A stretch of DNA of 64,000 bases from Squalus acanthias (GCA_030390025.1 CM059432.1:95110001-95174000), one strand, 5' to 3'. Positions 4,956 to 54,735 are shown, counted from the stretch's first letter. Numbers and translations are program-made. The notes: generated by a model from the letters alone, not told the origin.

Positions 4956-4986
<31 letters not shown>

Positions 4987-19723: not shown

Positions 19724-20760
19724 GGAAATACTTAGCAGGTCAGGCAACAGCAGTGGCGAGAGAAACAGAGTTAACGTTTCAGGTCTATGACCCTTTGGCA
19801 GACCCATTTCTGACGAAGGGTCATCGACCTGAAACACTGGGGGGAATTTTTCCAGCCCTGGGGAGGCGGGTATGGAGGCGGGACTGCCGGGAAAATGGCA
19901 GAAACTGGGAGCGGGTACCGACCCCGCTCCCAACCCGCCTCCGTGCCAACTTCCCGGGAGGCGGGTCCCCGACTTGCGCAGGGACCCGTCTCCTCAAGGC
20001 GGGAAGGGGATTAGAGCCAATTAACTGCCTGTTAACAGGTAGGGGCTTATCCCCATTTTACCCCTGCAAGTGTGGGCTTCCCGACGGCTGCGAACCTCGC
20101 CAGGGTCAGCGAGGCGAGCAGTGGGTCTGCGGGGGTAAGAGGGATCGAAAAGTCCGCTGTAGAGACGAGTGATGGGTGCAAGTGTGGAGAGGTAAGTATG
20201 AGAGGTGAGTGTAAAGTGTTGGAAAAAGTTTCCTTACCTTTGCTTCTTCCTGCAGGCTTCAACCCTTGGGGATCCGGAGGTGTCTCATCTCAACGGCAGA
20301 GATGACAGAATGACTGCTGCATTCTCAGATGCTTTCTGCTGAGGAGAGAGGTTTTGGTGAGCCTTCAGTACAGGGGCTCACCTTAGAAAAGAGATTGTCA
20401 GTGTTTGACAGCTTCTCAAAGCTGTCGAACTCTGACAATTCATCTGTCAAAAAATTTTCGACAGATGAAATGTCACACGCTGACGTCCTCTGTCACCGGC
20501 TTTCCCTTAATTGGCTGGCAAGCCCGCAGGGCGGGCTTAACAAGGTCAATCAAGGGAAAGTAGCATGGGTTGGCCAGACGTTGCTGGGGGCGGGACTGAA
20601 ACCCGACAACCAGCAGTCCCGCCCTCAATGCGCCCCCATTGACAAAATCCAGCTCATTAACTCTGTTTCTCTCTCCACAGATGCTGCCTGACCTGCTGAG
20701 TATTTCCAGCATTTTCTGTTTTTATTTCAGATTTCCAGCATCCACAGTATTTTGCTTTTG
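19724..20760. mobile_element. PLE family P1 inverted-repeat remnant interrupted by a MITE
   Basis: Same arms and tail as 313-548; GTCTCATTTTAATCT duplicated at 19709-19723 and 20760-20774; CTGACGA...GAAA core at 19810-19834. Confidence 0.8.
19839..20655. mobile_element. Harbinger-type MITE (family D)
   Basis: Ends GGGGGGAATTTT / AAAATCCAGCTC; TSD ACT/ATT. Confidence 0.78.
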
Positions 20761-21558
20761 TCTCATTTTAATCTCTCATCTGAACAACAGTACATCTGAC
20801 AATGCAGCACTCCCTCAGTACTGCATTGAAGTGTAGGCCAGACTTGTTTGTGCAATGGATCTTCACTTTAAAATTAATAGTGGGATAACTCTCTAGAGAG
20901 CAATAATACAATAAATGTTGGCATAGGACCCATACAGAATCATAAAGATCCTTCACCAATTCAGGATATTTTGCATAAATGCACAACACTGTGGCGCTGA
21001 AGAACAAATCTTCATCCTTTGCAATAATCACTTGCTAGAAATTGCTGCTGATTTACCTCGTTTCTTTTCCTGTCAGCATCTCTCTCTTCCCTGTGCATTT
21101 AATATTTGTGTCCTGGAAGCTGGAACTTTTTTAAATGATTTAGAATCCTAGATGAAGGGCCAAGGCTCATGTGTATGACATTGCCAAGGTTGAAAAGAGA
21201 AGAGAATAAAAAATAAATCAAGAAGTGGTGGTTAAGTGATGCCAACCTTGAGTTTTAAAAGCCCATAGATTACAGGAGGAAGGAAAGAGTAAGGGATAGA
21301 ATGAAAATTTTCTCTTCTAAGGAGGACTGAAAAACAGCTGGTCAGCGGTAATATCATTATAATAGGTAAGCATGGGTGGTATAACGGAATATTCTAGCAG
21401 ACAAAAGATGAGCTGCATAGAGGCCCCATTTTGGATTCTTGTGGCCAGGTCTGAAGCTCATTATGAGGTGAACAGTGATTGAATTGCACTTGACCTTCAT
21501 CCACTCTCTTTCTTCTCTTGGCTTTCTTTCTTCTGTCTTTTTTTCTCTATCCTTTTAG

Positions 21559-21674
21559 AACTACACAGTTAGGAAAATTAGGTAGAAGTGTTGTCAAACT
21601 AATTGTACAGGACTGCAGGAATGATCCTTGTCTATTGTGCAGTGGAACTGTACAATTTTAGGCTATGCATTTGA
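21559..21674 (+). other. Candidate exon (116 nt; stops in all three frames if used whole)
   Basis: Very long pyrimidine tract + TAG acceptor; GTAAGT donor immediately before a LINE poly(T). Confidence 0.3.
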
Positions 21675-21679
21675 GTAAG

Positions 21680-24450
21680 TTTTTTTTATTCGTTCATGGG
21701 ATGTGGGCATCGCTGGCAAGGCCAGCATTTATTGCCCATCCCTAACTGCCCTTGAGAAGGTGGTGGTGAGCCGCCTTCTTGAACCGCTGCAGTCCGTGTG
21801 GTGAAGATACTCCCATAGTGCTGTTAAGGAGGGAGTTCCAGGATTTTGACCCAGCAACGATGATATATTTCCAAGTCAGGATGGTGTGTGACTTGGACCG
21901 GAACTTGGAGGTGGTGATGTTCCCATGCGCCTGCTGCCCTTGTCCTTCTAGGTGGAAGAGGTCGCGGGTTTGGGAAGTGCTGTCGAAGAAGCCTTGGTGA
22001 GTTGCTGCAGTGCATCTTGTAGATGGTACACACTGCAGCCACGGTGAGCCAGTGGTGAAGGAAGTGAATGTTTAAGGTGGTGGATGGGGTGCCAATCATG
22101 AGGGCTGCATTGCCCTGGATGGTATCGAGCTTCTTGGGTGTTGTTGGAGCTGCACTCATCCAGGCAAGTGGAGAGTATTCCATCACACTCCTGACTTGTG
22201 CCTTGTAGATGGTGGCAAGGCTTTGGGGAGTCAGGAGGTGAATCACTCTCTGCAGAATAACCAGCCTCTGGCCTGCTCTTGTAGCCACAGTATTTATGTG
22301 GCTGGTCCAGTTAAATTTCTGTGCAATGGTGACCCCAAGGATGTTGATGGTGGGGGATTCGGCGATGGTAATGCCGTTGAATATCAAGGGGTGGTGGTTA
22401 GACTCTCTCTTGTTGGAGATAGTCATTGCCTGGCACTTGTGTGGCGCGAATGTTACTTGCCACTTATCAGCGCAAGCCTGAATGTCGTTCAGGTCTTGCT
22501 GCATGCGGGCATGGACTGCTTCATTATCTGAGGAGTTGTGAATGGAACTTAACACTGTAAAATCTTCAGCAAACATCCCCACTTCTGATCTTATGATGGA
22601 GGGAAGGTCATTGATGAAGCAGCTGAAGATGGTTGGGCCTAGGACACTGCCCTGATGAACTTCTGCAGCGATGTCCTGGGGCTGAGATGATTTGCCTCCA
22701 AGAAACACAGCCATCTTCCTTTGTGCTAGGTATGACTCCAGTGGAGCGTTTTCCCCCTGATTCCCATTGACTTCAATTTTACTAGGGCTCCTTGATGCCA
22801 CACTCCGTCAAATGCTGCCTTGATGTCAAGGGGCAGTCACTCTCACCTCACCTCTGGAATTCAGCTTTTTTTTCCAAGTTTGGACCAAGGCTGTAATGAG
22901 GTCTGGAGCTGAGTGGTCCCAGCGGAACCCAAACTGAGCATCGGTGAGCTGGCTATTGGTGAGTAAGTGCCGCTTGATAGCACTGTCAACGACACCTTCC
23001 ATGACTTTGCTGATGATTGAGAGTAGACTGATGGGGCGGTAATTGGCCGGATTGGATTTGTCTTGCTTTTTTTGGACAGGGCATACCTGGACAATTTTCC
23101 ACATTGTCGGGTAGATGTCAGTGTTGAATCTGTACTGGGACAACTTAGATAGAGGTGCGGCCAGTTCTGGAGCACATGTCTTCAGCACGACAGCTGGAAT
23201 GTTGTCAGGGCCCATAACCTTTGCTGTATCCAGTGCGCTCAGCCATTTCTTGATTTCATGTGGAGTGAATCGAATTGGCTGAAGACTGGCTTCTGTGATT
23301 GTGGGGACCTCAGGAGGAGGCTGAGAAAGGTCATCCACTCAGCACTTCTGGCTGAAGAAAGTTGCAAATGCTTCAACCTTGTCTTTTGCGCTCACGTGCT
23401 GGGCTCTACCATCATTGAGGATGGGGATAGTCACGGAGCCTCCTCCTCCCGTTAGTTGTTTTATTGTCTACCACCATTCACAACTGGATGTAGCACAACT
23501 GCAGAACTTTGATCTGATCCGTTGATTGTGGGATCGCTTAGCCCTGTCTATAGCATGCTGCTTCTGCTGTTTAGCATGCATGTAGTCCTGTGTTGTAGCT
23601 TCACCAGGTTGGCACCTCATTTTTAGGTATGTCTGGTGCTGCTCCTGGCATGCTCTTCTACACTCTTCATTGAACCAGGGTTGGTCCCCTGGCTTGATGG
23701 TAATGGTAGAGTGAGGGATATGCCGGGCCATGAGGTACAGATTGTGGTGGAATACAATTCTGCTGCTGCTGATGGCCCACAGCGCCTCATGCATGCCCAG
23801 CTTTGAGCTGCTATATCTGTTCTGAATCTATCCCATTTAGCATGGTGGTAGTGTCACACAACACGATGGAGGGTGTCTTCAGTGGGGAGATGGGGCATAG
23901 TCTCCACAAGGACTGTGCGATGGTCACTTCTACCATACTGTCATGGACAGATGCCTCTGCGATAGATAGATTTGTGAGGATGAGGTCAAGTAGCTTTTTC
24001 CCTTGTGTTAGTTCTCTCACCACCTGCTGCAGGCCCCGTCTGGCAGATATGTCCTTTAGGACTCAGTCAGCTCAGTCAGTAGTGGTGCTACTGAGCCACT
24101 CTTGGTGATGGACATTGAAGTCCCCTACCCAGAGTATGTTCTGTGCCCTTGCTAACCTCAGTGCTTCTTCCAAGTGGTGTTCAACATGGAAGAGCACTGA
24201 TTCATCAGCTGAGGGAGGGCGGTAGGTGGTAATCAGCAGATTTCCTTGCCCATGTTTGACCCGATGCCATGAGACTTCATAGCGTCTGAAGTCAATGTTG
24301 AGGACTCCCAGGGCCACTCCCTCCTGACTGTGTACCACTGTGCCATCACCTCTGATGGGTCTTTCCTGCCGGTGGGACAGGACATACCCAGGGATAGTAA
24401 TGGAGGGATCTGAGGTGTTGGCTGAAAGGTATGATTCTGTGAGTATGACT
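21680..24450 (-). mobile_element. CR1-group LINE (tRNA-headed family), 5'-truncated, frameshifted EN-RT
   Basis: TYRPPS/VGDFNVHH (24072-24338), NYRPISLL/QFGFR (22826-23338), QGSVLGP/FAED (21824-22801); poly(A) end. Confidence 0.88.
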
Positions 24451-24860
24451 GAGGGAGTTTTCCCTTTGTGATGAGTTATCTTGTGCTCTCTGTGAGTGAG
24501 ATTGCTAATACAGTATCAATTTGTACAGAATTATGGGGACTTTTATTTTACTGCAAGCTTGCACCTATTAGGAACTGGACTGAGATTGTTCAAACTCACT
24601 ACGTGTAGAGAGGAGAGAGTTTCAACCTATCAATTTGTGCTGGATTCTAACCAAGGTCACAGAGGTGAAATATCTGTGAGCTAATCTCCTTCCTGCCCTG
24701 TGCCAAAATGGAACTAAATTGGGAGTGGTTGAGGTAGACAATAGAGGAATAACTTTCTGAGTTTGCGCATCTGGTAGGGAGCCTCGCTGACTGGGAGTGC
24801 ATATTGGAAATTCAATAAATGACTGGAAAACCAAGCACAACACATAACCAAATTTATAAT

Positions 24861-25516
24861 GGCCCAGATTTTGCGGTCAGTGGTGAACGTTCATTACACT
24901 TCCAGTTGCTCACCGACTTTCTGTGAGCTTTTGCACTGTGACTTGGCATTTATTAGTGTCAAAACAGCGCAGCGCCTTCTACAGGGGATCTGAGACCTGT
25001 GTGAACAGGGAAAGCAACGGTGTGTCTCCTCAACCAATCAGATTGAAGAATCCTCACTGAGACACACAGGGCTGTATTTTCAATGACCCGTGGGGTCGGG
25101 TTTGGAGGCGTGTGGGGGGTTAAAATTTCAGATTCGCGGGTCCCGACCCCATCCCGACTCCAACCCGCCTCCACGCAATTTTGACAAAATCGGTCGCGGG
25201 GTTCCCGACTCCGTCCCGCCTCCAAGAGGCAGGAGAGGCCATTAAAGCCCTTAACAAGCCCTAAATTGGCTCTGTAATGCCATTTTGAAACGTTTTAGCT
25301 AGTTTAACCCTTTTCCGACGTGAAGTACGCCTGATGTGAAACACGCCAGTGAAACCTGGCGGGAGCACAGTGGATAGCTGACTATCAGCTGCAGGTCCAC
25401 TATTACAACGGAGATGTGATGAAGGTAGTAGTAGTATTAGGTCTGAAAGTTGCCTCTGATGCTGCTGCATTGAATGTCTTCAGAGACTGCCTGGGAGGAC
25501 TTGGTTGCAAAAAAAT

Positions 25517-25554
<38 letters not shown>

Positions 25555-26381
25555 GTCTCTCTCTCTCTCTCTCTCTCTGCATCCAGGTCCACTCACAGCA
25601 AAAGCCAGGCAATCTCTGAGACCAGGCAGTCAGTCTCTGACCTGCAATGATGACATCATCAGAGGCGACTTTCAGACTGAAACCACTAATTGACTCATGG
25701 GTTCCCACATGCTGGAACTCAATTGCCCAATTAAGTGAAAATTGCATCATTCATCCACATTAATCTGGAGTCGGGGGGGGCAACACGAAATGCGGGTAAC
25801 ACGACCCCAACCCAACCCCAAGACAAAATCCAGCCCGCAGAGTCTAAACCAGGAAGTGCAAGTTGCAATTCAATGTAAAATCATGTACAGAAAGCAAAAT
25901 AAAGAGAGGGAAAGATAAATGGGATTAAGAGAGAGAGAGAGATAAAAGAGACAGAAAGATAAAGTAAAATTAAAAAAAATGTTTTTTTAAATCTCCAACA
26001 AAATTAAAATCTGAAGGAATGAGACTCCACACTTTTAAAAGTAAATTTTCAGTGCTAGAGAGGTTGTTTGGCAGTAATTAAGACTTTTCACGCTGTTAGA
26101 AATTCACTTACTCTTGAATGGACCAAGTCCTAACTTTTTCTCGCGTGTTTAGTGCATATCTAGTGGGTAAGTACCACAAATGCACGCCGTTCCATGTATT
26201 TGAATGCTGAGTCTGAGGTGTAGCGAAGCTTCTGGAGAAGCAGGGAATCTCGGATAGCAACTTCCTAGTTTCCACGTTGAACTGCGCATGTGCGGACGCC
26301 GGAAGTTAATGTCCGATTTACTCCTTAATAATGGCGAGCACTGATAACATCACCATTATTTGTACCAGAAAAAATGTGTGC
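24861..26381. mobile_element. Harbinger-type MITE (family A) hosting a family E MITE
   Basis: Left end GGCCCAGATTTTGC preceded by AAT; colinear with 10094-10830; right end degraded. Confidence 0.7.
25069..25836. mobile_element. Harbinger-type MITE (family E), inverted relative to 4642-5435
   Basis: TIR GGGCTGTATTTT/AAAATCCAGCCC; TSD ACA/GCA (CpG-type difference); internal (CT)n. Confidence 0.85.
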
Positions 26382-29336
26382 ATCCAGTGGGCGAGACTCC
26401 CTGCCAGGAGCACAAAGTCAGAAAATCATCCCTTATATTTAAAAAGTTGTTCCTTTTCCACATTCGCCTGGAGTATTATTTTTTTTTTAAGTTTAAGCTG
26501 CAGCGGAATCTGTGACTTAGATCATCCCACCCTCCTGGATGAAAGAAGGCCTGGCAGTGAGTGATAACAGTGGTGATCTAGCTGGAGGAAAGCAATGGGA
26601 AAATAAGCACTCCAATCTGGAGCTTTGAAAAAATCCTTTGAAGTACATTCTCTTTATGAATGGTGTTTGGCGGCATTTTTTAAACTTGCACGCAAACATG
26701 TGATGTCATAATGTATATTGCACTAAAATATGTCAGCGCTTCACCTGCACCAGATGTCATTATAATAGAAATGCGTCATGGCTCTTCTACCTTTACTCTC
26801 ATACAAAAGATATGCCAGGTAACCAATTGTTGATGTCTTTTTACCCAATTTGGGGAAACGCTAATTTTGTTTTACGCATTTTTAGCCCTTGCAGGTCCTT
26901 CCACTGAGGCAAAGGTCAAAAGGGGTGTGACAGGCTATCTCCTCCCAGGCCACAGCTGATGCCACTCCTAGCCATCCACTTGGACAGTGTTATCTAATAG
27001 AAATTTCTGTCTAGCCACAAGTGTGGCTACAGTTACACTGTTTTAGACACATGCACTAATTTTAGTAAAAAAACACCTTACATACACTCACACAATGCAG
27101 GCCAATGTACTTCACGTGTCTATTTACTTAACAAACATCTACCACCATTCAGTAACCAAGGAAATAAAGCACTCACAACGATCAAAAATCCACTCGCAAA
27201 CTCTGCTTTTCGTCTAACCATTTTATCAATAAACAAGCAAAAAGTTTAAAGTAGACATGCATACACCTTGCAAATACGAGTATTGAGATCACATGCCTAA
27301 CGATGCTGTCTATTACTCCTTTTTTTAATTTACTTATCAAAAATGCAGTTAGTCACATTGGATTCCCAATTATCCACATATGACTAGTGGCTAACGTATT
27401 GGACAACACTGCACGAGGAGATACCCAACAGCAGCACACTGAGCACTATGGGTCTGATTTTTTAACCCCCTCATGGGCATGAAAGTCAGCTGAAATCACC
27501 TCTGCTCTGTGGCACTGCATCAGAATGCTCCAGTGCACAGCGCAACCAGCTAAATAGTTTTCCCTAAAGACATGCACCTAGAAAGAAAAATGTTTTAGTC
27601 CTCAGCAGAGGCAGCAGTATAGGGGTTAAAAGAATCAGTACCTTAATTGGTCTCAGAAAATATTGGTTCGACAGTGGCATCAACCAGTGAAAGTGAAAGT
27701 ATCACCAACAGTTCCCACATAACTCTAATACTTGCACCTTTCTAACATTCTTTCCTGACAACCACCTCCTTTAATGTGATCCAGACATTTACCAGAAAAT
27801 GCATGTTGACCCCGCCAGTGCTTAAAGCAAGAATGCCCAGCTCAGTGAAGTGAGATAGGTTACAGATCTGCCTTTAGTACTGTTAGAATTCAGACTCATT
27901 GCTTCATGACAGCTTTAGGAACAGATTTGCCTTTGTTGTTTTAGTGACATTTTTAATTAGTTCAAACTCTTTACAAAAACACAAACCAGATTAATGACTG
28001 TTATAAATAACAGCCACTATATGCTTCTTGCACCTGCAGAAAATCAAGCTCATTGTTATATTTTCCTATTTCTAATGATACCGCGTTAAGCAATAAAATG
28101 CTTTATTATCTTCTGTAGGCACAATTTTCCAACTGACATCTGTCTGAGCCTTCACAGATTTTAAATATTTTCTCCAGTAGCAATTACATCATAGTCTAAC
28201 AATCATTACATTACATATACACCTAACATGCAGATTTAATCTATTGAGGACATTTTGAAAAACTTATAACAAGATGTTCGGCTTCACTCAGCCTGGAAGC
28301 CTTTCATTGTTTTATAGCAGAGCTGCTCGTGTGACTCAACAGTGTCACAAAGACAATGGAACATGAAAGGAAATGTTTTAATAAAGACAGCACAACAAAC
28401 ACACCTATCGATAATCTGACAGCAATAATGAGCTCAACGGTATGCGTTCTTGCATATTTTATTAAAATAGGTTCTCTTTAAGTACTTATTTCTCCCTGTT
28501 CCCAAAAGGCATTAACATCATAAAGCTCCTATACTATTTGTGATGTTAGTTATTGCCTAAGTGGCAGGGATAAATGAAGAACTGAATGTCTTACTTGAAG
28601 TGTTCCAGATTGTTCCAATTTCAGTTTATTTGCTAAGTATCCAAATGACACTTCAATATATTCTTGTTAATAAAATGATGGACCCATATACAAAGGAACA
28701 AAACATCCCTGTACCAACAAACTGCAACTACACACTGGAAAGCACAAAATAATTGCAGACAACATCGCAAATATAAATCATTCTCAAAACTTACAAGGCA
28801 AAACAGTTTACATTAGTAGCAAAGTCTCAATTGGAATGAATGAATCGCCCCTACATTGTAAAGGTAAGTACAAAATGGAGCTTCAAGCAGCATTACCTAT
28901 TGTAACTGACACCAGCAGTATTTCAGTCCCAAAAAGCTGCAGGCGAAAATCGATTGGGCCTCTTCAGAAACTGATGCTCCAAACCATGTGTTAGTCAAAT
29001 AAATAGGAAAGCAATGTTTATTTGACTGATGCGTAATTTAAAAAATCTCTTACAAAAAGTCCCACTGGATTTTCATCTGCACCTTTTTTTGTGACTTGCT
29101 GCTGGTGTCGGCTACAATGCGAGAAATACTTAAAACTTCACTCAGTACTTATCACATCGATGTAGTGGAGCGGAGTTTATGGTCATTCATTCATTCCAAC
29201 TCAGACATGTTTGTTTACCTCTTTTGTTAAAATGTATTCTATAAGATATTGTACATGTAGATTTTGTGTGAATTAAACCCGTGCACCGACCAGGATGACC
29301 TGAGAAAGTGCAGCATGATACCAGGCAAGGGGCAAT

Positions 29337-29616
29337 GGCCCAGATTTTGCGGTCAGGAGCGAACATAGAAACATAGGAGCACGAGTAGGCCATTCGGCCC
29401 TTCGAGCCTGCTCCGCCATTCAATATGATCAACGACGCTCACTGTTCATTATACTTGCAGCTGCCCACAGTCTTTTCGTGGGCTTTTGAGCAGCAACTTA
29501 GGGTGATCGGGCGTCTGAAACAGCGTGGCACCCTCAACAGGGGATCTGTGTGAATAAGGCATGCAACAGCTGTCTCCCCAACCAATCAGATTGAAGAATC
29601 CTCACTGAGACATGCA
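29337..29616. mobile_element. Family A MITE left part, with a short CR1-tail insertion (about 29362-29430)
   Basis: GGCCCAGATTTTGC preceded by AAT; colinear with 24861-25068. Confidence 0.7.
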
Positions 29617-30319
29617 GGGCTGAATCTTAACTCCCACAAACGGGTGGGTTGGGGTTGTGCCAGAGATTAATATTCATAAAATCTGAAACAGGAACCCAAC
29701 CCGCCTTGAACCCAGCCACTTCTGGTTTTAATGGAGGCGCGACAAGGAGCTGAGGCTGCCTGCCTTCATTTTAACAGTAATTCTATTTTTAATTCATGTC
29801 AGCCGGGTTTCCCAGGCCTCGGGAACACGGCAGGTGAAAAGAGGCAAGAAGGGCTGAATCCATGAGGTAAGTACCTTTACAGCACTGCTTGTGGCCCAGG
29901 AGGAGCAGAAGTGTTTCCTCCTGGCCCAACCAGCTACCCAGTAAACCCCACCCCCCACCCCACAACCCCGGCCGCGATCTGTCTGATCCCCCAACCACCA
30001 TCGGGCCCCCCCGACCACCATCGGACCACGCCCCCTGATCACGGGACGACCCCCTCCCCGAAATCGCACCCCTACCGCGATCGCCCCCCCCCCCACCCCG
30101 TGATTAGACCTACCCGTGGTTGGACCCCCCCCCCCCCGCGACCAGGACCCCTCATACAATTGGCACCCCTCTGCCATTGGGACCCCCTTGTGATTGGACC
30201 ACTCCCGCGATTGGGTCCCCCCACAATAGGGAGCCCCCCCACCCATGATCGGGACACCCTCCCCACGATCTCCGAAACCGACCTTGTCAGCCGGCTCCAT
30301 GGTGTCAAATTTCACGGCC
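29617..30319. mobile_element. Family B MITE inserted in a family A MITE; right end uncertain
   Basis: GGGCTGAATCTTAACTCCC start matches 11377; C-rich core; possible right TIR AAATTTCACGGCC. Confidence 0.65.
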
Positions 30320-30593
30320 AGAATGTTAGTGCACAGAAGCAGGCCATTTGGCCCATCAAGTCTGCGCCAGTCTTTTTCTGTACATAAGCCACCTTGTCTA
30401 TTCCTATCCTCCTGCTCGGTCCCAATGCCCTCTAATCTAGAACTATGGCAGTTCACAGCACAGAAGGAGGCCATTCATTGTGCCTGTGCCTGCTAGAGTG
30501 ATCCAAAACTAATCCCACTGCCTCGCTTTCTCCACATAGTCTTGTATCCTCATCTGCTTCAAATATTTATCCAAATTTCCTTTAAAACTCCTA

Positions 30594-31487
30594 GGGGTAG
30601 AAATTAGGTCGCGCCCCATTTGGGGCGCAAATATCGTCTGGACGCAAATATTAGCGCCTGGCGCTAATTATCGGCACTGACTGGAAACTTCACTTTTACC
30701 GCCCCGGGAGGTGAGTGGAGCGCTAAAGCAGGCGCTGCACACCTGTCTTAAGGCGCAAAGGCCAAGGAGTGAGGCGCTACCTCAGAGCGCTGGCGAAGCT
30801 CATGTAATGTCAGTCAGCAATGGAACACACACACAATGGCACGGTCCAGTTCTTAAAGGGGATGGTTAATCTTGCTTTCCATCCACATCCTGTTCATTGC
30901 AGCCTTGAATCTCGGCCTGGAGAGACTTGCACATCAAATGTGCTGGAAAGAACAATGGAGAGTACCAGGCAAAGAGCTCAGAGTGCAGCTCCCACAGTCT
31001 CTGCTAAATCGATACAAGGAATGGCAAATCAAAATGAACCTGCAAAGTGCTGCTCAGTACCCAAAACTCCTTCCCACAACGTTGAATCTCTCCAGAAGTC
31101 TCTCCCTCTCTCTCTCAGAATGCGTAGTTCAAAAATGCCACCAACAATAAAAGACAGGAAGAGGCCCCCTTTAAATAGCGCCCCCCCCCAGCCCCACAGC
31201 GATTGATAGCGTTCCAGTCTTCTGGTCGTTGGATGCACCAGGCGGTAAGGCAGGGGGCGCCACTCAATTTCCACTCCGGGGCGCCACAAGGGCGTTGCAC
31301 CATGGAATGACGTCACAATCTGCGCGCGCAGGTGGTCGCAGCGGTAAGTTTTAGCGCCGCCGCACAATCTCTAGTTAAGTTCCCGAGCGGCGCAAACATC
31401 GCTGCGCCTGGGAGTTAGCGGCTTTGCGCCCCATTAGCGCCCTCTTAAGGCGCTAACGGGAGACGCAACCAACTGAATTTTTACCCT
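30594..31487 (-). mobile_element. Harbinger-derived MITE (family F)
   Basis: TIR GGGGTAGAAATT/AATTTTTACCCT; TSD CTA/CTA; right end is the reverse complement of the 33151 terminus; many AGCGCC/GGCGCT subterminal motifs. Confidence 0.82.
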
Positions 31488-34455: not shown

Positions 34456-34504
34456 TTAAGAATATTGAGGATTAACAGGCGGGTAAGCCTACTTTTGAAA
34501 ATCA

Positions 34505-43154: not shown

Positions 43155-43219
43155 GAGGACACAGGTTTAAACTATTAAAAGGCAGTTTTAGGCTATCAGG
43201 AAATTCTTCTTCACACAAT

Positions 43220-43371
43220 GTTGTAGATCTTGACTTTTTGTGATAGTGTAAAACGGGTGATAGCGAGTCGGCATTGACCTCAATGGACATAAAAATCATG
43301 AGAGATGTAAAATGGGCTGCCGATTTATTATGATGCGTTTTACACTATCACACACAGTCAGGATCTACCCC
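43220..43371. mobile_element. Short hairpin MITE (family C, Harbinger-type)
   Basis: Long TIRs GTAGATCTTGAC...GATAGTGTAAAACG / CGTTTTACACTATC...GTCAGGATCTACCCC; TSD AAT/AAT. Confidence 0.78.
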
Positions 43372-43570
43372 AATGAGTGATCAATGTGTGGAATAAACTT
43401 CCAGATAGAGTAGTGGAGACAAAATTCCTGGAGTCATTTAAGAAACAATTGAATGCTACAATGGGTGGGGTGGGGAGTTAGGCTCTCTCTGGATGGATGA
43501 ACTAAGATAAAATGAATGACCTTCCTCATCTGTAATTATGCACTTGTAACAACAGATTTTTTGACACAAG

Positions 43571-43782
43571 GGGCTGGATTTTTCTCATCTGTGGATTTAC
43601 TGCCAGAAGTGCACTAGAACTGTCCTTAAACCTGCCAGTATTGTACTGCTGTGAATCGGCCCAATTTCCCTCAGTGCGCATTCATTATACATTCATGGTG
43701 AGTTTTAGGTGCTGCCTCGGGGGATGGGGCAGTGGGGGATGGGGCAGTGGGGGATGGCGGGTGGGGGAGGAAAATCCATTGC
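43571..43782. mobile_element. Short degenerate Harbinger-type MITE
   Basis: GGGCTGGATTTT start and AAAATCCA end; internal 15-bp G-rich duplication. Confidence 0.5.
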
Positions 43783-43846
43783 TACTGTAGCAGCTGAAAC
43801 AGTCAAAGCAGCCCTTTTGTGTCTGTAAAAATGTGGCTTGTTGCAG

Positions 43847-43978
43847 TGCCTGAGGCTGGTAGTTCTTCAGGGCATCAAGCCCACAAATTTAAAGACTCTT
43901 CAGATGGAGTGTTACAATCTGTAAAACAGCAAAGTAGGAAAAATTCCAGGCCTGACTGTAAATGCCATCACTTTGTTG
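43847..43978 (+). other. Candidate coding exon (132 nt, phase 1-1)
   Basis: TTGTTGCAG acceptor; TTG|GTAAGA donor; open frame VPEAGSSSGHQAHKFKDSSDGVLQSVKQQSRKNSRPDCKCHHFVG; product not recognised. Confidence 0.3.
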
Positions 43979-44586
43979 GTAAGATAGTAATATCATTTTT
44001 TTTGTACCATATATTAGAGATAAATAAATGAGTTATTTATTTTAACATGTTGTTGATATAATTTGTAGTAGGAATGTTGGGCAACTGATTGGCATCTTTA
44101 TTCTACTTGTGGAGATCACACGTGTCTTTGTCATCCATACGTTACACAGTATTCTCACTGAGGAGGTAAACATACTGACACAATTATTCATTGAGTGCCC
44201 TTTAACATAAACCTTTTTCAACCGCAATTTGAATACTGGAGGACATTAATTTTAATATTAATTTACCCAACAAGAGCTGTTCTTAAAAACATCTAAACAA
44301 TTACCCAATATATCTTTTAAAGTTTTTAAAAAACTATAAATATCTTGCTGAATTAAATAAAACTTTAGGTTCAGAGTTGTATAAAAATAGTATCTTATCT
44401 ATTCTAAACAAAGGGTTATTTATGAAATTGTTCAAACTACAAAGGTTACTTTCTACCTGCCTTTACAGCTTAATTATCCACCACCTTCAAACATTGCAAG
44501 TTAATAGCCCTCTGACAATACCATGCATAAGCTTCACAGTTTTATGATTTGATCTGTTTGAACACAATTTCTCAGAAACACATTTG

Positions 44587-47500
44587 GAACATAGGAACAT
44601 AGTAACAGGAGTAGGCCATTTAGCCCCTCGAGCCTGTTCCGCCATTCAATGAGAACATGTTGATCGGTGACCTAACGGTAGCATAGTGGTTATGTTACTG
44701 GACTAATAATCCAGAGGCCTGGACTAATAATCCAGAGACATGAGTTCAAATCCCACAACAGGCAGCTGGGAAATTTAAATTCAGTTAATTAAATAAATCT
44801 GGAATAAAAAGCTAGTATCATTAATGGTAACCGTGAAACTATCGGATTGTCGTAAAAACCCATCTGGTTCACTAATGCCCTTTGAGGGAAGGAAATCTGT
44901 GATCCTTACCTGGTCTGGCCTATATGTGACTCCAGACCCACAACAATGTGGTTGACTCTTAACTGCCCTCTGAAATGGCCTAGCAAGCCACTCAGGTGTA
45001 AAAATACTGCTACGAATAAGAATAAAACCGGACGGACCACCCAGCATCGACCTCGGCACCGGCACACCCAGCCCAGTCGACTCAGCAAAGTCCTCCTCAC
45101 CAACATCTAGGGACTTGTGCCAAAATTGGGAGAGCTGTCCCACAGACTAGTCAAGCAACAGCCTGACATAACCATATTCACAGAATCATACCTTTCAGCC
45201 AATGTCCCAGACTCTTCCATCACCATCCCTGGGTATGTCCTGTCCCATATTAAACAGCTAACGGGAGGAGGAGGCTCCATGAATATCCCCATCCTCAATG
45301 ATAGTGGAGCCCAGCACGTGAATGCAAAAGACAAAGCTGAAGCGTTTGCAACCATCTTCAGCCAGACGTGCCGAGTGGATGATCCATATCGGCCTCCTCC
45401 TGAAGTCCCCGCCAGTCTTCAGTCAATTCACTTCACTCCACGTGATATCAAGAAACGGCTGAGTGCACTGGATACAGCAAAGGCTGTGGGCCCCGACAAC
45501 ATCCTGGCTGTCGTGCTTCAGAACTAGCCGCGTCTCTAGCCAAGCTGTTCCAGTACAGCTACAACACTGGCATCTATCCGAAAATGTTGAAAATTGCCCA
45601 GGTATGTCCTGGCTACAAAAACAAGGACAAAGCCAATTACTGCCCATCAGTCTACTCTCAATCATCAGGAAGGTGTCGTCAACATTGCTATCAAGCTGCA
45701 CTTACTCACTGATGCCCAGTTTGGGTTCCACCAGGACCACTCGTCTCCAGACCTCATTACAGCCTTGGTCCAAACATGGACAACAGAGGTGAGGTGAGAG
45801 TGGCTGCCCTTGACATCAAGGCAGCATTTGACCGAGTGTGGCATCAAGGAGCCCTGGTAAAACTGAAGTCAATGGGAATCGGGGGAAAACTCTCCACTGG
45901 CTAGAGTCATACCTAGCACAAAGGAAGATGGTTGTGGTGGTTGGAGGTCAATCCTCAGGGCAGTGTCCTAGGCCCAACCATCTTCTTCAATGACCTTCCC
46001 TCCATCATAAGGTCAGAAGTGGGGATGATCGCTGATGACTGCACATTGTTCAGTGCCATTTGCAACTCCTCAGATAATGAAGCAATCCATGCCCACATGC
46101 AACAAGATCTGGACGACATTCAGGCTTGGGCTGATAAGTGGCAGGTCACACAAGTGACAGGCAATGACTATCTGCAAAAAGCGAGCGTTTAACCACCGCC
46201 CCTTAACATTCAATGGCATTACCATTGCTGAATCAATATCCTAGGGGCCACCATTGACCAGAAACTTAACTGGACCAGCCACATAAATACTGTGGCAACA
46301 AGAGCAGGTCAGAGGCTAGGTATTCTGCAGCGAGTGTCTCACAACCTGACTCCCCAAAGCCTTTCCACCATCTACAAGGCACAAGTCAGGAGTGTGATGG
46401 AATACTCTCCACTTGCCTGGATGAGTGCAACTCCAACAACACTCAAGAAGCTTGACACCATCCAGGACAAAGCAGCCCGCTTGATTGGCACCACATTCAC
46501 TCACTCCACTACCGCTGTACCGTGGCTGCAGTGTGTACCATCTACAAGGTGCATTGTAGCAACTCATCAAGACTTCTTCGGCAGCACCCCCAAAACCTGC
46601 AACCTCTACCACCTAGAAGGACAATGGCAGAAGGTGCATGGGAACACCACCCCCTCCAAGTCACACACCATCCTGACTTGGAAGTATATCGCCATTCCTT
46701 CATCGTCGCTGGGTCAAAATCCTGGAACTCCCTCCCTAACAGCACTGTGGGAGTACCTTCACCACTCGGACTGCAGCGGTTCAAGAAGGCGGCTCACCAC
46801 CACCTTCTCAAGGGCAACTAGGTTTGGGCAATAAATGCTGGCTTTGCCAGCGACACCCACATCCCATGAATGAATAAAATAATACTCCATATACCCACCT
46901 TTGCCCCATATCCCTTAATACATTTGGTTAACAAAAATCTATCAATCTCAGATTTAAAATTAACAATTGTTCTAGCATCAATTGCCGTTTGTGGAAGAGT
47001 GTTCCAAACTTCTACCACCCTTTGTGTGTAGAAGTGTTTCCTAATTTCACTCCTGAAAAGTCTGGCTCTAATTTTTAGACCCTGTTCTAGACTCCCCAAC
47101 CAGCTGAAATAGTTTCTCTGTATCGACCCTATCTGTTCCCTTTAATATCTTGAAAACTTAAATCAAATCACCCCTTAACCGTCTAAATTCTAGGGAATAC
47201 AACGCTAATTTGTGTAATCTCTCCTCGTAATTTAACCCTTAGCATCCAGGTATCATTCTTGTTAACCTGTGCTACACTCTCTCCAAGGTCAATATATCCT
47301 TCCTAAGGTGTGGTGCCCAGAACTGCTCACAATACTCCAGGTGTGGTCTAACCAGGGCTTTGTATAGCTGCAGCATAACTTCTACCCCCTTGTATTCTAG
47401 TCCTCTAGATATAAAGGCCAGCATTCCATTACCCTTTTTGATTATTTTCTGTACCTGTTCATGACAGTTTAATGATCTATGTACCTGGATCCCAAGTCTC

Positions 47501-47695
47501 TTTGGACCTCCACTGTTTTTAGCTTTTCACCATTTAGAATGTACCTTGCTCTATCCTTTTTGGTCCAAATTGGATGACCTCACATTGGCCTACATTGAAA
47601 TCCATTTGCCACAGTTTTGCCCATTCACTTAATCTATCCATATCCCTTTGTAATGTTATGCTTTCATCTACAATGCCTACAATGCCACCTATCTG
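44587..47695 (-). mobile_element. CR1 3' fragment split by the 44677-46883 insertion
   Basis: Tail and 3' UTR at 44587-44676 continue at 46884 (GACCTAAC|TCCATATACCC); FYTQRVVEVWNTLP. Confidence 0.8.
44677..46883 (+). mobile_element. tRNA-headed, internally deleted CR1-group LINE
   Basis: A-box TAGCATAGTGG, B-box GAGTTCAAATC; EN start LVPKLGELSHRL...FTESYL; QGSVLGP, IADD; same family as 21680-24450. Confidence 0.8.
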
Positions 47696-48044
47696 GTTGG
47701 TAGGAAGTTAATTTTATATTTCGCAAGATTTAATTCCAGAAAATACCAAAACTATTTGTGCAAGATCCTTGGCTAACAGAACTTGTTAAATTTGAGTTTT
47801 CACTCTTGTCAGTTAATTGTCTGCCTTCACGCCACTGGTGTGAATTGTTGATATTCTGCAACCATTTCACCTACAACAACATTTGTACATCAATGGGAAT
47901 AGCCACATATAACTCACGTGAGACCTGACTGTACACCTGTTAATATAGGCCTGCTATTCTGGAGCACCCAGAGGAGCTGATTTATTTCATGTAATTTAAA
48001 AAAAAATCTTTAATTACATCAAACATGTTAGTTTAAAATTCAGC

Positions 48045-48600
48045 TGAATTTATTTCTAGAGGGATAGAATTGAAAAGTAGTGAATTTATGCTAAACTTGT
48101 ATCGAACCTTAGTTAGACCACACTTGGAGTACTGTATACAGTTCTGGTCATCCTATTATAAAAAAGATATAGAGGCACTGGAGATGGTGCAAAAAATGTT
48201 TACAAGGATGATACCAGAACTGCGAGATTATACCTATCAGGAAAGAATGAACAGGCCAGGTGCCTTTTCTCTTGAAAGAGAAGGCTGAGGGGTGATCTAA
48301 TAGAGGTCTTTAAAATCATGAAAGGTTTTGATAAAGTAGACAGAGTCTTTCCACTTGTGGGGAAGAGCAAAACTAAAGGCCATCAATATAAGATAGTCAC
48401 CAAGAAATCAAATAGGGAATTCAGAAGAAACTTCTTTACCCAGAGAGTGATGAGAATATAGAACTCGCTACCACAGGGAGTGATTGAGGCGAATAGCATT
48501 TAAGAGGAGGCTAGATAAGCATATGAGGGAGAAGGGAATAGAGGGTTATGCTGGTTGGGCTGAATGGCCTGTTTCTGCGCTGTATATTCTATGTAATTCT
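48045..48600 (+). mobile_element. CR1 LINE 3' fragment
   Basis: LYRTLVRPHLEYC (ORF 48070-48288); ATTCTATG tail. Confidence 0.85.
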
Positions 48601-48949
48601 ACTTTGATTACAATATATATTTAACATATTACCCCTGTAGTACTGGGGCTGGTGACTGAAGATTAATCTGAGTATCATTCAATGTACATTGGGCTACATG
48701 CTGTAATTGGTAGGAGACAGATGCCTGAATAAAGCAAGAGGTGACACCTTACTCTGGTACAAAACCTGCTGGAGAAATTGCACTCTAAACATTAGTGGAC
48801 ACAATTCTTACAATGTTGCATGCAATTCTAAACAATGTCCATCGGATATACATGACTATAACCATTAGCCATCCAATGTAACTACAAAATCATTATCTAT
48901 CTAAAAAAAGATCAATTGTCTCTTCTTGGTCCAATGCTTGCTGATGTTG

Positions 48950-49210
48950 TTAACTGGTCCCTTTCCTCAGTTGCTGTTCCCCAGGGCCTTTAAAACTGCT
49001 GTCATCACTCCCTTCGTTAAATAGCCTATTCTCAACCCCTCTATGCTCACCAGCTTCCTCCCCATACCAACCTCCCATTTTTCTCTCAGGGCCTTGAACT
49101 TGCCATTGCAACACTGCACCCCATCCATTCCACCATTTCCTGTCTGAATCCATTCAGTTTAGCTTCTGCCCTACCCACAGCACCAGAAATGCTCTTGTCA
49201 AAGTCACTTA
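48950..49210 (+). mobile_element. Degenerate L2 fragment
   Basis: FKTAVITP-like and ALVKVT remnants. Confidence 0.5.
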
Positions 49211-50048
49211 AGTGTAGTAATTTGCAGTAAACACCTAAACCATAACTACCTGACATACATTTTTGAAAGAAGCATAGATCCTGACGTTGGCAAAAAAATT
49301 TTTATTTTTGTTATTGATTCAAGTCTCTGCATTATTTAAAGACTGCTGCAACACAGCAAATACAATCAATGATATTAGCTTCAAAAGTATAAAGAAGTTG
49401 TTTCCTTTACCACATACAATAGTTTTTTCCATGTTCTGCATCAAGTGATAACAGAGTTGTGGAAATGGTTTTCATATTACAGTGATCATAAAATACATTA
49501 TGGCTTATTACTCTCACTATATCCATTTGACAATATTTTGGCTGCCATTCATTTGGCATTTCTTTTCAAAGTTGAGCAAATTCACAAAACCTCTGTAAAT
49601 TTGGTAAACACATGTTGCTGGAAATCCCATAACTACACATATGTGACTAGAAGTTGCTGTTACTGCGTTAACGGATGAAAGCTTAACACCTTCTTATGAC
49701 ATTCCTCTGACCACTATTTTAACACAATTAACCTACTTATTTTAAATGGGTTAAAACATATGCTAAAATAACAGACAGAGGAATGTCACGTTAAATATTC
49801 ATTTGCTGATATTACAACAGTAATTTCTAGGCGATGTGTGTTCAGAGTTCAGATGCTGTTCATCTAGAAAATAATGTGCAGTGTATCTAAAGAAAGTAAT
49901 CTGAGAAAAACATGTTTTGAATGGGTTGTGGATTACATATTTGCTTTAAAAATGTTCTACATGTGTCCCCCTTGGCAGAAGCCTGGCTATCTTTAATTAT
50001 GAGAAGTCGCACAACACCAGGTTATAGTCCAACAGATTTATTTAAAAT

Positions 50049-50086
50049 TACAAGCTTTCGGAGCTATCCTGCCCCTTCTTCAGGTA
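50049..50086 (-). ncRNA. Minimal hammerhead ribozyme motif (inverted arm copy)
   Basis: Exact reverse complement of 50773-50810. Confidence 0.72.
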
Positions 50087-50413
50087 GAGTTACTGTGAGA
50101 CAATCTACCAGAATTCACAGAATATAAACACAGAGAAAATGCAGAGATTCAATCTTTCCCTACATCAAAGACACACTAAGAGCACAGCCAAGACAATGAG
50201 ATGTGTCCCAGGGGGTCCAACGTGTCAAAACACCTGCTGGCTGCATATCCTCTCCATTTGGGTTTGTTTCTTGTGTTTGTTTCTTGTGTTTGTTTTTTTA
50301 AAAAGCTGGAAAGACCGGCAACGATGTCAAGTCATGTTCTGTAGCGTGACATGAACCCGATATCCCGATTGAGGCCGTCCTCATGAGTGCGGAACTTGGC
50401 TATCAGTTTCTGC

Positions 50414-50527
50414 CTTCGGGATACACGACAACGCAAAATCATCGAGCAGAAACTGATAGCCAAGTTCCGCACTCATGAGGACGGCCTCAATCGGGATATC
50501 GGGTTCATGTCACGCTACAGAACGTGA
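50414..50527 (+). pseudogene. Penelope GIY-YIG endonuclease C-terminus
   Basis: Manual translation LRDTRQRKIIEQKLIAKFRTHEDGLNRDIGFMSRYRT*, matching the E...I...T...GLN.D motif. Too short for the ORF track. Confidence 0.82.
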
Positions 50528-50772
50528 CTTGACATCGTTGCCGGTCTTTCCAGCTTTTTAAAAAAACAAACACAAGAAACAAACACAAGAAACAAACCCA
50601 AATGGAGAGGATATGCAGCCAGCAGGTGTTTTGACATGTTGGACCCCCTGGGACACATCTCATTGTCTTGGCTGTGCTCTTAGTGTGTCTTTGATGTAGG
50701 GAAAGATTGAATCTCTGCATTTTCTCTGTGTTTATATTCTGTGAATTCTGGAAGATTGTCTCACAGTAACTC

Positions 50773-50810
50773 TACCTGAAGAAGGGGCAGGATAGCTCCG
50801 AAAGCTTGTA
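50773..50810 (+). ncRNA. Minimal hammerhead ribozyme motif
   Basis: UAC-CUGAAGA-A-GGGGC(AGGAUA)GCUCC-GAAA-GC-UU-GUA. Confidence 0.75.
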
Positions 50811-51964
50811 ATTTTAAATAAATCTGTTGGACTATAACCTGGTGTTGTGCGACTTCTCATTTTTGTCCACCCCAGTCCAACGCCGGCATCTCCATATCTT
50901 TAATTAGTGGACTCTTGTGAGAGTTGGCATAGCTGAGATTGCCTCTTTGTGATCAAACAGGTGATTCTGAGCTGGTTTGAGCATGTGAGAGAATGAATGA
51001 TTGATTATATATAAATAACATTGCTAGATAATGAAGGTAGACGTTAGAATATGTTCACGCATAGACTATGCATATAGCTGGAAAATAAGTGGAGCTGATA
51101 GTTGCAAGATATGCTGCATAAATGAAATGAAATGCTGTAAAAACCAGGAATCTTCTAGCCCGTGTCCCATTTTGACCATTTTTTGTACTGGCGAACTGGG
51201 AGTTTTGCATTGCATAAAAGAATCTAAACTTTCCAACTTTTTTTATAAATCCTTCTTCATTTCTAACTGACACTGAATCACTGGATCAATCTGAAACATC
51301 GACCAGAAAAAGGACATTTTCCTGCAAGTAAAGTGCACCTGGACTACAGGAAATCTTTCTATTTACAGTTTACCTTTGTTTTAATTAGCATTTCAAAAGG
51401 GGCACAACTCTATTAACATAGTATAATGGTCCATTCATACTGCAGATTTTGTTTTGATTTGATGCAAAAATCAGCACAGAATCTGGAAAATAGCTGCAAG
51501 ATAACTAATGATTTCAGGGGGATTTGGTTTAACAAAAGTGGTATGAGATAGTCCCGCAGCACTTTGAGGCCACTGCGCCAGCATAATTGCAACCAGTATG
51601 AAGCAAACTTAAAAAAATTCAAACTTTATTTTTAAACTTTGCAATGTTAGTCATCCGTTGATTGGTCAGCTCATCGGTAATGTTAAAAGTTTTACTGGTA
51701 TTTAGGTGTTTATGAGTACCTAGGTCCAAGTATAAAAATTCAGAGCTTCTATTTGCATAGTGGTGTGGAGCCAATAGTGTTACTCAATGCTGACAGCTTG
51801 CATGGGTCTTGAGCAGATACCATTATAAAGTCACTCGTTGCAGTATAATTGGGGCATAAATATCAATGGGTTTCCCCTTAATAGAATCCCCCTCCCTGCG
51901 TACTGGACTGCATGAAGTAATGTGAATTTAATGTATTACACTGCATTTTTAACCACACAGACAA

Positions 51965-52270
51965 TTCCAAACCTGTGACCTCTACCAGCTAGAAGGACAA
52001 GAGCAGCAGGTGTATGGGAATGCCATCAGCTCCAAGTTCCCCTCCAAGTCACACACCATCCCGACTTGGCCATACATCGCCGTTCCTTCATCGTCACTGG
52101 GTCAAAATCCTGGAACTCCCTACCTAACAGCGCTGTGGGAGCACCTTCACCACATGGACTGCAGCCATTCAAGAAGAAGGCTCACCATCACCTTCTAGGC
52201 AACTAGGGATGAGCAATAAAGGCTGGCCTTGCTAGCGACGCCCATATCAAGAGAATGAATAATAAACAAA
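51965..52270 (+). mobile_element. 3' end of the tRNA-headed LINE family
   Basis: Matches about 46590-46880. Confidence 0.8.
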
Positions 52271-53655
52271 AATCTCAAATGTCTTCTTCCTACTAACTTC
52301 AAGTGGTGAAGTTTCCTTAGATTCCAACCCTGGCAGGGCAGGCACATCAGTAATACTTTGCAACCCAGTATTCTGGATAATATATACCACTTGGGATTCT
52401 TCTGACCAGGAAACCTGTCCTCAATGAAGTTAGCAGCCAAGCAAGAAGGTAGGGAAAAAATAAAAGCTGGAATTAATTACAATGTAACTGCATACAATTC
52501 AGAACAAGTTTGTGTTCAGGAGAATAAAAAAAAATCAGATCAAGCATCTTTTTTAAAAGTTAAAAAGTTATCATAAATGAAATATTTAAGCATCAATTTA
52601 TGTAGATAAATAATGAAAATTTAAATGAATAAATTGTGAACCTAACAGTTTCTCCTAGTTACACAGTGAGGGAAATGTTTTGACTCATCTTCTTTCAGTA
52701 TAACTAAGTCTTCTTCCCCTTTATTGTTCTCTGTAAAATCAGCGTTGTGCTTAATCTTTTCTATTAATGTATATGGTATAAAATGGGCCTAAAATTTTCT
52801 CCTCAAAAGGATTCTAACTATTGCCTACTGGAAATGGAAATGACTATCACATTATATCTGACTATTAGAATAAAAGTTTAATATATTTGCAGTGTGACAG
52901 AGTTTCCTGTTTTTGTTGTAATTTTAAAATTTCTAAAATTTAAACAGAAGATGTTTTAAAGGCTTTTCCCAGAAGGACAGTGTTGTCCGAATTGGCGTGT
53001 TCAACATGATTTTTTTTAAATGGGCTGCGTCATAGACCTTGACATGTTATCTCCTGAAGGCAAAATACCCGGTGTTACAAAATTCAGTTAATATGTTGCT
53101 TCTGCAGTTGCAGTCTTGGAGTGTTTTGTATCAAATTAGTCCTCAATTCCTTGCATACTTGAGCAAAAAATCTGCACTTGTGTTTCAATATCTCAAGGCT
53201 GAGAATGGCCATGCGAACATAATGAGCACATTATTAGGAGAGCAATGTTCTTTGTGGACCTTGTAAATTTTAAATGATATGATGTTTCACAAGATAAGAC
53301 ACAAACATTTTGCAAATGCAAGTAAAAAGCAGGTACCAGTAAAAATATTATTCAATGATCCCTGATTATAAAATCCATTGACGTTGTAATTTCCCAATTT
53401 TAATCATTTAATCTAGTCTCATAACTTACAAATGATAAATTTTCATGCTAATTATTCAGCATACATTAGATTAAAGGAGTTATGAATACAGCCCCACTAA
53501 GGCCATTTTAAATGAAGGAATTAATGGATTGCTTACTCTTATTATCCAGCAGCAGCACCTATTTTCAGGAAATGTATAAACCATGATCTTTAACTCAAAG
53601 TACAGATTACTGCTGGCTATACGTAGTACATAATCATATCGATATAGGATTAATT

Positions 53656-54735
53656 CCTATAACTCCTGCCCTCCACCCTATCACAGACCTTTCCCTTTTG
53701 ATCTTTTCCTACCCCCTTTTTCCTGGCTCTGCACTTGCTTAAAAGTTCTTCAACTCTAACATCTTCCAGTTCTGATCAAAGGTCATCAACCTGAAACATA
53801 GGGCTGGATTTTCCAAGCCCCGAGGAGGCGGGCATGGAGGCGGGACAGCCGGTAAACTCGGAGAAAGTGGGGGCGGATGGCAAAGCCGCCCCCATCCCGC
53901 CTCCGTGCCCTTTTGCCAGGAGGCGGGAAGATGTGCAGCTTCGAGTCCCGTCTCCTGGAGGCGGAAAAGGCATTTAATCCTCTTAACTGCCTGTTAACAG
54001 CTAGTTAACAGGCAGAAAAAAGGATTAGTGCCATTTTACCTTCACAGGTGAAGGCTTCCCAACCTTGGAGAACCCTGCCGGGTTGGAGGAGACGTGGAGG
54101 AGGTCTGTGGTGGTCGGAGGCACCTGGAAGTAAGGTGTAGAGGTGAGTGATGGGTGCAAGTGTGGAGTGGTAAGTATGCAAGGTGAGTGATAAGTTTTAA
54201 AAAGTGTTCACTTACCTTGTTTTCTTCCTACAGCCTTTAGCCGCGGTGGATCGGGAGAGCCGACATCCTGCTTGTCAATTTCACAGAATGACTGTTGGAA
54301 CCTCCGTTCCAACAACCATGTGAAATTTACAAATTTGAAAGGTTTGATGAGTCCTGAACACAAGGACTCATCAAACTAAAGAGAATGTCAGTGTTTGACA
54401 GCTTCACAGAGCTGTCAAACGCTGACATTTCTTCTTTCAAGAAGTCTTGACAGATAGCACGTCTGATGTTGACGTGTTCTGTCAGTGACTTCCTCCCTAA
54501 TTGGCCTGCTGAGCCCGCAGGGCGGGCTTAACAAGCTCAATCAGGGGAAAATTCCTCTGGTTGGTCAGGTGAGGATGGAGGTGGGACATTGACACGCCTC
54601 CAACTCACCTCCATTCACAAAATCCAGCCCATTAACTCTGTTTCTCTCTCCACATATGCTGCCTGATCTACTGAGTGTTTCCAGCATTTTCTGTTTTTAC
54701 TTCAGATTTCCTGCATCTGCAGTATTTTGCTTTTG
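53656..54735 (+). mobile_element. PLE family P1 pLTR (longer, single orientation) interrupted by a MITE
   Basis: Pyrimidine-rich upstream part; degenerate core CTGATCA...GAAA at 53772-53796; resumes at 54631 with the P1 arm and tail. Confidence 0.75.
53801..54630. mobile_element. Harbinger-type MITE (family D)
   Basis: Perfect 12-bp TIR GGGCTGGATTTT/AAAATCCAGCCC; TSD ATA/ATT. Confidence 0.85.

Follow-up and report, generated by a model that had tools for sequence, protein, structure and literature searches.

The window analysed here, a 64-kb stretch of spiny dogfish DNA (Squalus acanthias, GCA_030390025.1 CM059432.1:95110001-95174000), contains two non-autonomous Harbinger-type elements, each lying within a copy (host 1 and host 2) of a repeat referred to as P1, and an intact P1 copy that serves as the empty-site reference. 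A related element lies in a CR1 repeat.

299..562, unstranded: intact inverted P1 copy, the empty-site reference
416..444, plus strand: minimal-hammerhead-like core of the intact P1 copy, a putative ribozyme recognized from its sequence by the descriptor in the accessible text of PMC4209133
6843..7667, plus strand: related element in a CR1 ORF2 hot spot, duplication AAA/AAT
19709..19723, plus strand: host 1 direct repeat, left copy, 15 bp
19722..19802, minus strand: host 1 inverted sister arm, triplet still GTT
19810..19835, plus strand: host 1 hammerhead-like core through GAAAC
19836..19838, plus strand: left target duplication of element 1, ACT, one mismatch to ATT
19839..20655, plus strand: Harbinger-type non-autonomous element 1, 817 bp
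20656..20658, plus strand: right target duplication of element 1, ATT
20659..20759, plus strand: host 1 3' part of the P1 arm, 97% identical to the intact copy
20760..20774, plus strand: host 1 direct repeat, right copy, 15 bp, exact match to the left copy
53659..53797, plus strand: host 2 long single arm (3' untranslated part of a Penelope-like element, PLE, and core)
53798..53800, plus strand: left target duplication of element 2, ATA, one mismatch to ATT
53801..54630, plus strand: Harbinger-type non-autonomous element 2, 830 bp, terminal inverted repeat (TIR) GGGCTGGATTTT at both ends
54631..54633, plus strand: right target duplication of element 2, ATT
54634..54735, plus strand: host 2 3' part of the P1 arm, 93% identical to the intact copy

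Each element sits in a P1 copy, with CTGAAAC on one side and AACTCTG on the other, at the positions given in the initial annotation, and the triplet of the intact copy is confirmed as GTT. In that copy, which is bounded by 14-bp direct repeats (299-312 and 549-562), the core consists of CTGATGA (416-422), stem II, GAAAC, and GTT (442-444). The two hosts, 90.5% alike, do differ in form, as had been noted: host 1 is inverted and has an exact 15-bp repeat, and for host 2, a long single arm whose core reads CTGATCA at 53772-53778, a flanking direct repeat longer than 8 bp was not found. The ATT triplet ascribed to both hosts is seen in the right copy of the duplication, but the left copies read ACT and ATA, so that ATT is presumed there. 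The elements were described as different, and only 566 of 800 aligned bases are identical (70.8%), yet they are related, colinear, and equally oriented. The coincidence of two such insertions in one 64-kb window is expected in approximately 4-50 windows genome-wide.

The inserted elements are Harbinger-type, because L175, a 1,759-bp element with the same TIR and inserted at the same P1 triplet, encodes a DDE_Tnp_4 fragment (E 5e-14); a weaker fragment is present in L171. Terminal inverted repeats are present: element 2 has GGGCTGGATTTT at each end, and element 1 has variant ends. The 3-bp target duplication is exact in 44 of 59 paired elements, pre-selected at no more than one duplication mismatch, and has one mismatch in each of the window's two elements. 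The extended 15-bp target preference, with information confined to positions -6 to +6, was seen again in a second set. For the Myb-like second protein, candidate frames in L181 and L176 had no Pfam match, and an intact partner was not found. Many intact transposase frames exist in the genome (150 were scored of 63,886 candidates); comparison of the 12 best transposase loci with the window elements gave no match, and the autonomous partner was not identified among them. The earlier statement that AAT is the commonest Harbinger duplication in the window is not secure, as the three other paired elements of the window have TGA/TGA, AAA/AAT, and ACA/GCA; outside the window, the 44 exact duplications are led by ATA/TAT (16 cases), with five cases of AAT/ATT.

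P1 forms the terminal region at the 3' end of a Penelope-like element of the EN+ type, an assignment based on the adjoining frames with reverse transcriptase (RT) and GIY-YIG domains and on the Atlas neighbours of these frames, which combine RT, HTH_animal, and GIY-YIG at 0.96-0.97. A single open reading frame with RT and, at its C terminus, GIY-YIG lies beside P1, the frames ending about 290 bases upstream of it in L204 and L206. The Pfam matches to these frames, RVT_1 (E 0.0045) and GIY-YIG (E 0.009), are both below the cut-offs, and L204 had no match. None of five stretches inspected for a direct pLTR pair contained two same-strand P1 copies around one PLE frame. Truncated P1 copies of inverted form are frequent, accounting for 18 of 63 empty arms.

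The P1 motif has the sequence features of a minimal type I hammerhead, with CUGANGA and GAAA boxes, the extra base after position 9, the palindromic 15.2-16.2 segment, and an NUH triplet. The first box reads CTGACGA or CTGATGA in 73 of 95 parsed arms, for which boxes were required in advance with one mismatch allowed; stem II is conserved across the arms and its loop is variable. The G10.1-C11.1 pair is absent, the commonest P1 stems closing with G-U or A-U beside GAAA. No hammerhead was detected by an Rfam search of the window, and none was formed in monomer folds (408-452, z -0.6), the ribozyme being putative. An Rfam match to mir-14 in the window was rejected as a chance match to the inverted repeat.

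The pile-up of Harbinger-type ends at the P1 triplet is real, genome-wide, and beyond chance, because the 3.7-Gb genome contains 688 exact left junctions at this triplet, as compared to 0 matches to the reversed-pattern control. Empty exact P1 sites number 50,489. When 0-30 bases were allowed between the P1 anchor and the TIR and the offsets were counted by hand, 88 of the first 100 of 545 listed junctions lay at the triplet, one was ambiguous, and 11 fell at three nearby offsets (6, 4, and 1 cases); gaps of 11-30 bases, which cover the hammerhead core, held none of these 100. A scan of the adjoining 30 bases yielded 14 matches, of which about 11 represent the same triplet within deleted or rearranged hosts, and both scans covered the P1 arm up to its last approximately 50 bases. 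The positions thus form a sharp peak and not an even spread. An element family specific to one host repeat was considered and rejected, as P1 holds only 2/100 and 1/100 of the Harbinger ends in two listings.

The most likely cause of the peak, missed by the initial annotation, is a 15-base flank preference which the elements show everywhere, with hotter sites in CR1. Genome-wide, the preferred target is the 15-base palindrome ARASWC-WWW-GWSTYT. At non-P1 sites, the elements favour A at -4, a pyrimidine at -1, and an A/T-rich 3-bp duplication, mirrored on the other side. The matrix was built from 42 independent non-P1 sites (85 loci and the window gave 59 elements with both ends, 57 of them outside P1), and has A at 0.88 in position -4 and C at 0.73 in position -1. 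The pattern is repeated by 30 ends of the window elements' own families (A 0.87, C 0.77), a few of these loci overlapping the 42-site set. Moreover, 21 of the 57 non-P1 elements recur in six other repeat sites. A 15-bp insertion preference is reported for vertebrate Harbingers in the accessible text of PMC2836001, and the Harbinger3_DR target as quoted in PMC3016246, AAACACCWGGTCTTT, scores 8.9 bits on the shark non-P1 matrix.

For the CR1 ORF2 site, 1,167 matches to the filled pattern and 2,894 to the empty one were counted. The per-copy occupancy, corrected by the right flank (exact in 17 of 26 cases for P1 and in 4 of 4 resolved cases for CR1, where 5-6 of 10 had no resolved right end), is approximately 0.9% for P1 and 14-29% for CR1, both figures being rough: the empty pattern for CR1 is narrow, and the P1 value is lowered because hosts that are filled seem to be of greater age than a typical empty copy. 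By this rough measure, the CR1 site is approximately 15-35 times more occupied per copy. Its use fits the matrix score much better than the use of P1 does. The element at 6843..7667 is an in-window case of a stronger target than P1.

The P1-triplet insertions are independent and number in the hundreds in the genome. By their ends, the 51 unique complete composites can be sorted into 14 element groups, 235-3,425 bp long and with both orientations represented (10/10, 11/5, and 2/2 within groups); the groups were formed by single linkage of ends at 82%, which merges the families of the window's two elements, and a separate comparison splits these two into distinct families. Among the 43 of 51 composites with hosts colinear with the intact copy, the median identity is 90% for the hosts and 57% for the element ends, and host and element identities are uncorrelated (Mantel r 0.045, p 0.23). 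Likewise, no correlation was observed in the first host-distance test (median 79%, blurred by truncated hosts). The initial annotation favoured independent insertion into a hot spot, which these data bear out, and offered as an alternative the descent of both from a single old PLE::MITE composite that was retrotransposed as one piece. A common origin would agree with the relatedness and equal orientation of the window's two elements, and one pair, L008 and L009, does share an insertion, though by a segmental duplication, the flanks being 98.7% alike across 1.5 kb (the pair was retained in the counts). However, the window elements are 71% alike inside hosts 90.5% alike, and each has closer relatives at non-P1 sites: the nearest sampled relatives of element 1 (86-89% identical) are found at both P1 and non-P1 sites, the latter at 88%, and the nearest sampled relative of element 2 (L265, 92.8%, or 93%) is at a non-P1 site. 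Together with the number, size range, and orientations of the groups and the Mantel test, this refutes the composite ancestor for the bulk of the insertions, and we regard it as an exceedingly improbable account of the pile-up. Selection fares no better: if insertion here occurred at an ordinary rate and ribozyme-disabling insertions were retained, the coincidence of the site with the putative cleavage triplet, as delimited by the PMC4209133 descriptor, would be accounted for, but insertions into the core would disable the ribozyme too, yet none was seen there among the listed junctions, and no fewer than 50,000 copies are still empty. We give this explanation almost no credence.

The initial annotation also suggested that CpG decay makes the hot spot; in the strict form of this suggestion, only ATT alleles would be good targets. 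By hand count, the first 100 of 688 listed filled junctions include 49 GTT, 34 ATT, and 17 other triplets, as compared to 90 GTT, nine ATT, and one TTT in the first 100 of 50,489 listed empty sites, so that ATT is indeed enriched in filled hosts. The left/right triplets of the 51 complete composites are GTT/GTT in 23 cases, ATT/ATT in 11, GTT/ATT in seven, ATT/GTT in one, and other in nine. A rough estimate from the discordant pairs is 15% decay per copy after insertion and less than one double decay, against the 11 ATT/ATT pairs observed; on this basis, approximately 13 of 49 targets (27%) were ATT before insertion, whereas 8% of empty copies are ATT today. Of the four ATT-type hosts that are inverted, three retain G in the sister arm, and therefore the G-to-A change postdates the landing of P1. 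On the other hand, most insertions used GTT (by estimate, about seven in ten used the intact triplet): 23 of the 51 composites have G on both sides, and eight more have G on one side and A on the other, which back-mutation cannot explain. The GTT/GTT majority refutes the strict form of the suggestion, which is left with very little likelihood, and the weak form, enhancement of the site by decay, is kept in the explanation that we prefer. ATT is favoured over GTT at least about fourfold; the matrix predicts eightfold.

The state of the target CpG was also compared with that of a control CpG. In the first 100 of 439 filled hosts listed, the target is CG in 51, CA in 35, TG in 12, and TA in two (hand count), and the control is CG in 70, CA in 11, and TG in 19. 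In empty hosts genome-wide, the target CpG has 4,109 CA and 3,545 TG, that is, the two strands decay nearly evenly. The CA excess at the filled target is significant (p 0.001 and 0.005, the latter by Fisher's test), and a part of the skew may reflect T being disfavoured at -1. Skewed decay in empty arms, suggested by 36 incidental arms (CA in seven, TG in two), was rejected given the nearly even genome counts.

The matrix alone does not rank the observed site first. Within P1, the additive scores are 6.7 bits at position 450, 5.1 at 444, and 4.2 at the GTT site, 442, which is third, whereas these positions were used four, 0-1, and 88 times, respectively, in the first 100 of 545 listed junctions. 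By a rough estimate, the use of GTT sites exceeds that of the average base about 1,000-fold, compared to about 20-fold predicted by the matrix. Positions 450 and 444 fail the requirement for a purine at +1, and 442 passes; this four-base core rule was chosen after the fact, eight other P1 positions also pass it, and only the rule and the matrix combined rank 442 first. The likeliest cause of the misfit is the matrix itself, small (42 sites) and mixed in families. Alternatively, the site might have an extra draw beyond the 15-base preference, such as the palindrome shape at the CpG, methylation, or a shared chromatin compartment. Both the roughly 50-fold under-prediction of GTT use by a matrix that ranks the site third and the occurrence of G after C(-1) in only 1 of 89 non-P1 half-sites, when most P1 insertions used GTT, speak for this; yet, apart from the limits of the matrix, 442 passes at the four strongest positions where its higher-scoring neighbours fail, P1 is per copy far colder than the CR1 site, and hosts of the inverted, hairpin-capable form show no enrichment (12 of 51 among filled versus 18 of 63 among empty ones, p 0.67), and we consider an extra draw unlikely. 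Cruciform targeting was rejected on the latter counts. It is similarly doubtful that the transposases read a feature outside the flanking consensus, for example the palindrome with its methylated CpG or the shape of that palindrome, and that methylation-driven decay of silenced PLE copies upgrades targets several-fold, host silencing of one transposon thus steering another's insertions onto the ribozyme.

We therefore hold, with good confidence, that many related Harbinger-type elements were inserted independently at the GTT triplet, likely because its flanks match the 15-base palindromic preference of the transposase. This makes the site an ordinary hot spot, and an attack on the ribozyme is improbable. 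Together with a second protein, the transposase would read the flanks, six bases on each side, and about 1% of P1 copies would be filled because the site is a middling one present in at least 50,000 copies. Methyl-CpG decay would convert the disfavoured first base G into the favoured A and raise the use approximately 4-10 times. The overlap with the putative cleavage triplet would be accidental. The core stays to the left of an insertion, and the 3' strand of helix I ends up about 800 bases away, so that the insertion would part this strand from the core and likely end any self-cleavage; destruction of the putative ribozyme, as stated in the initial annotation, is plausible. The window hosts are likely inactive anyway, since the triplet is altered in both and a core base is changed in host 2. 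Replacement of helix I by the element end was considered and rejected: the element end can pair with the 5' strand, and in register it gives -9.0 versus the native -6.5 kcal/mol, but the predicted minimum-energy fold (-18.3) is shifted and inactive, with the core buried.

These observations indicate that insertions at the same base of repeat copies, even at a functional-looking base, need neither targeting nor a common ancestor, and such repeat-site insertions are homoplasic markers. The hundreds of insertions at one site existing in G and A forms offer a natural comparison of alleles for studying how Harbingers choose targets. If the excess over the matrix holds, it would suggest that structure or methylation contributes to site choice.

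Our literature search, with subscription papers and Repbase mostly outside its scope, turned up no paper describing Harbinger elements inserted at the hammerhead of a PLE. As described in the accessible text of PMC4209133, the minimal hammerheads of metazoan PLEs share with P1 the CUGANGA core, the extra base after position 9, the palindromic 15.2-16.2 segment, a short helix I, and the presence of many copies, derived from truncated PLEs, that are single or on opposite strands. They differ in the conserved G-C at 10.1-11.1, where P1 has G-U or A-U, and in helix II, which is 5 bp long in P1, where ribozyme activity is putative. The supplements of that paper may already describe a fish or shark ribozyme family that matches P1. 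According to the available text of PMC2836001, the Tourist MITEs of the mPing/PIF type are likewise non-autonomous, moved by PIF/Harbinger proteins, and have an extended insertion preference, but the preference of the plant elements is 9 bp, versus 15 here, and their length is 100-500 bp, below the 817-830 bp of the window elements. The closest parallel is zebrafish Harbinger3_DR and Harbinger3N_DR (Sinzelle et al. 2008, as cited in PMC3016246 and PMC2836001), with a 3-bp duplication inside a 15-bp quasi-palindrome as here, and with flanks, AAACAC and GTCTTT, that fit our matrix at all 12 flank positions. The zebrafish target differs in its centre (CWG versus WWW), the TIR here is GGGCTGGATTTT, unlike that of Harbinger3_DR, and the preference here, read from genomic copies and not from an assay, is looser. 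Thus the 15-base target habit of Harbingers, which mostly explains a hot spot in an abundant repeat, is already known, and the new details are the effect of the G/A allele and the unexplained excess over the matrix.

At the codons for NKYFVS in CR1 ORF2, genome-wide pattern counts in the Squalus acanthias assembly gave 1,167 sites filled by Harbinger-type elements versus 2,894 empty ones. Perhaps 14-29% of matching CR1 ORF2 copies are occupied, a rough estimate that is corrected for right flanks and uses a narrow pattern for empty sites; for one site, this may be near saturation. Among 57 sites outside P1 (the 3' terminal repeat arm of the Penelope-like element) whose Harbinger-type elements have both ends paired, three further landing sites recur: an 8-base tail repeat (6/57), a second CR1-like site (4/57), and one site in a further, unnamed repeat (3/57).

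Filled sites (L, loci elsewhere in the assembly)
CR1 ORF2 NKYFVS, examples: L244-L247, L252; window 6843-7667
8-base tail repeat: L040, L055, L077, L208, L233, L235
Second CR1-like site: L038, L051, L058, L073
Unnamed repeat: L074, L230; window 4642-5435

Internal inverted repeats and splice-site-like motifs are conserved at equivalent places in the MITEs.

Equivalent MITE-internal segments, window
20394-20475 and 54379-54433
7019-7067 and 53965-54036

The window also contains an inverted repeat at 49999-50860 (415 bases, 99% complementary, 32-base spacer). At L206:231-5319, two near-full Penelope-like ORFs lie in opposite orientation with a P1 arm at the end of each; this pair is a long version of the inverted P1 structure.

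The P1 triplet (GTT/ATT) is also filled by 1.7-3.4 kb elements (L171, L174, L175, L177, L178, and L181), two of which carry transposase fragments. Harbinger transposase frames of 384-392 codons, found in L191-L202 and the genome-wide candidate list, are in many cases open and mutually 97-100% alike. Such near-identical open frames suggest a recently active family, and one that does not appear to be the partner of the window MITEs.
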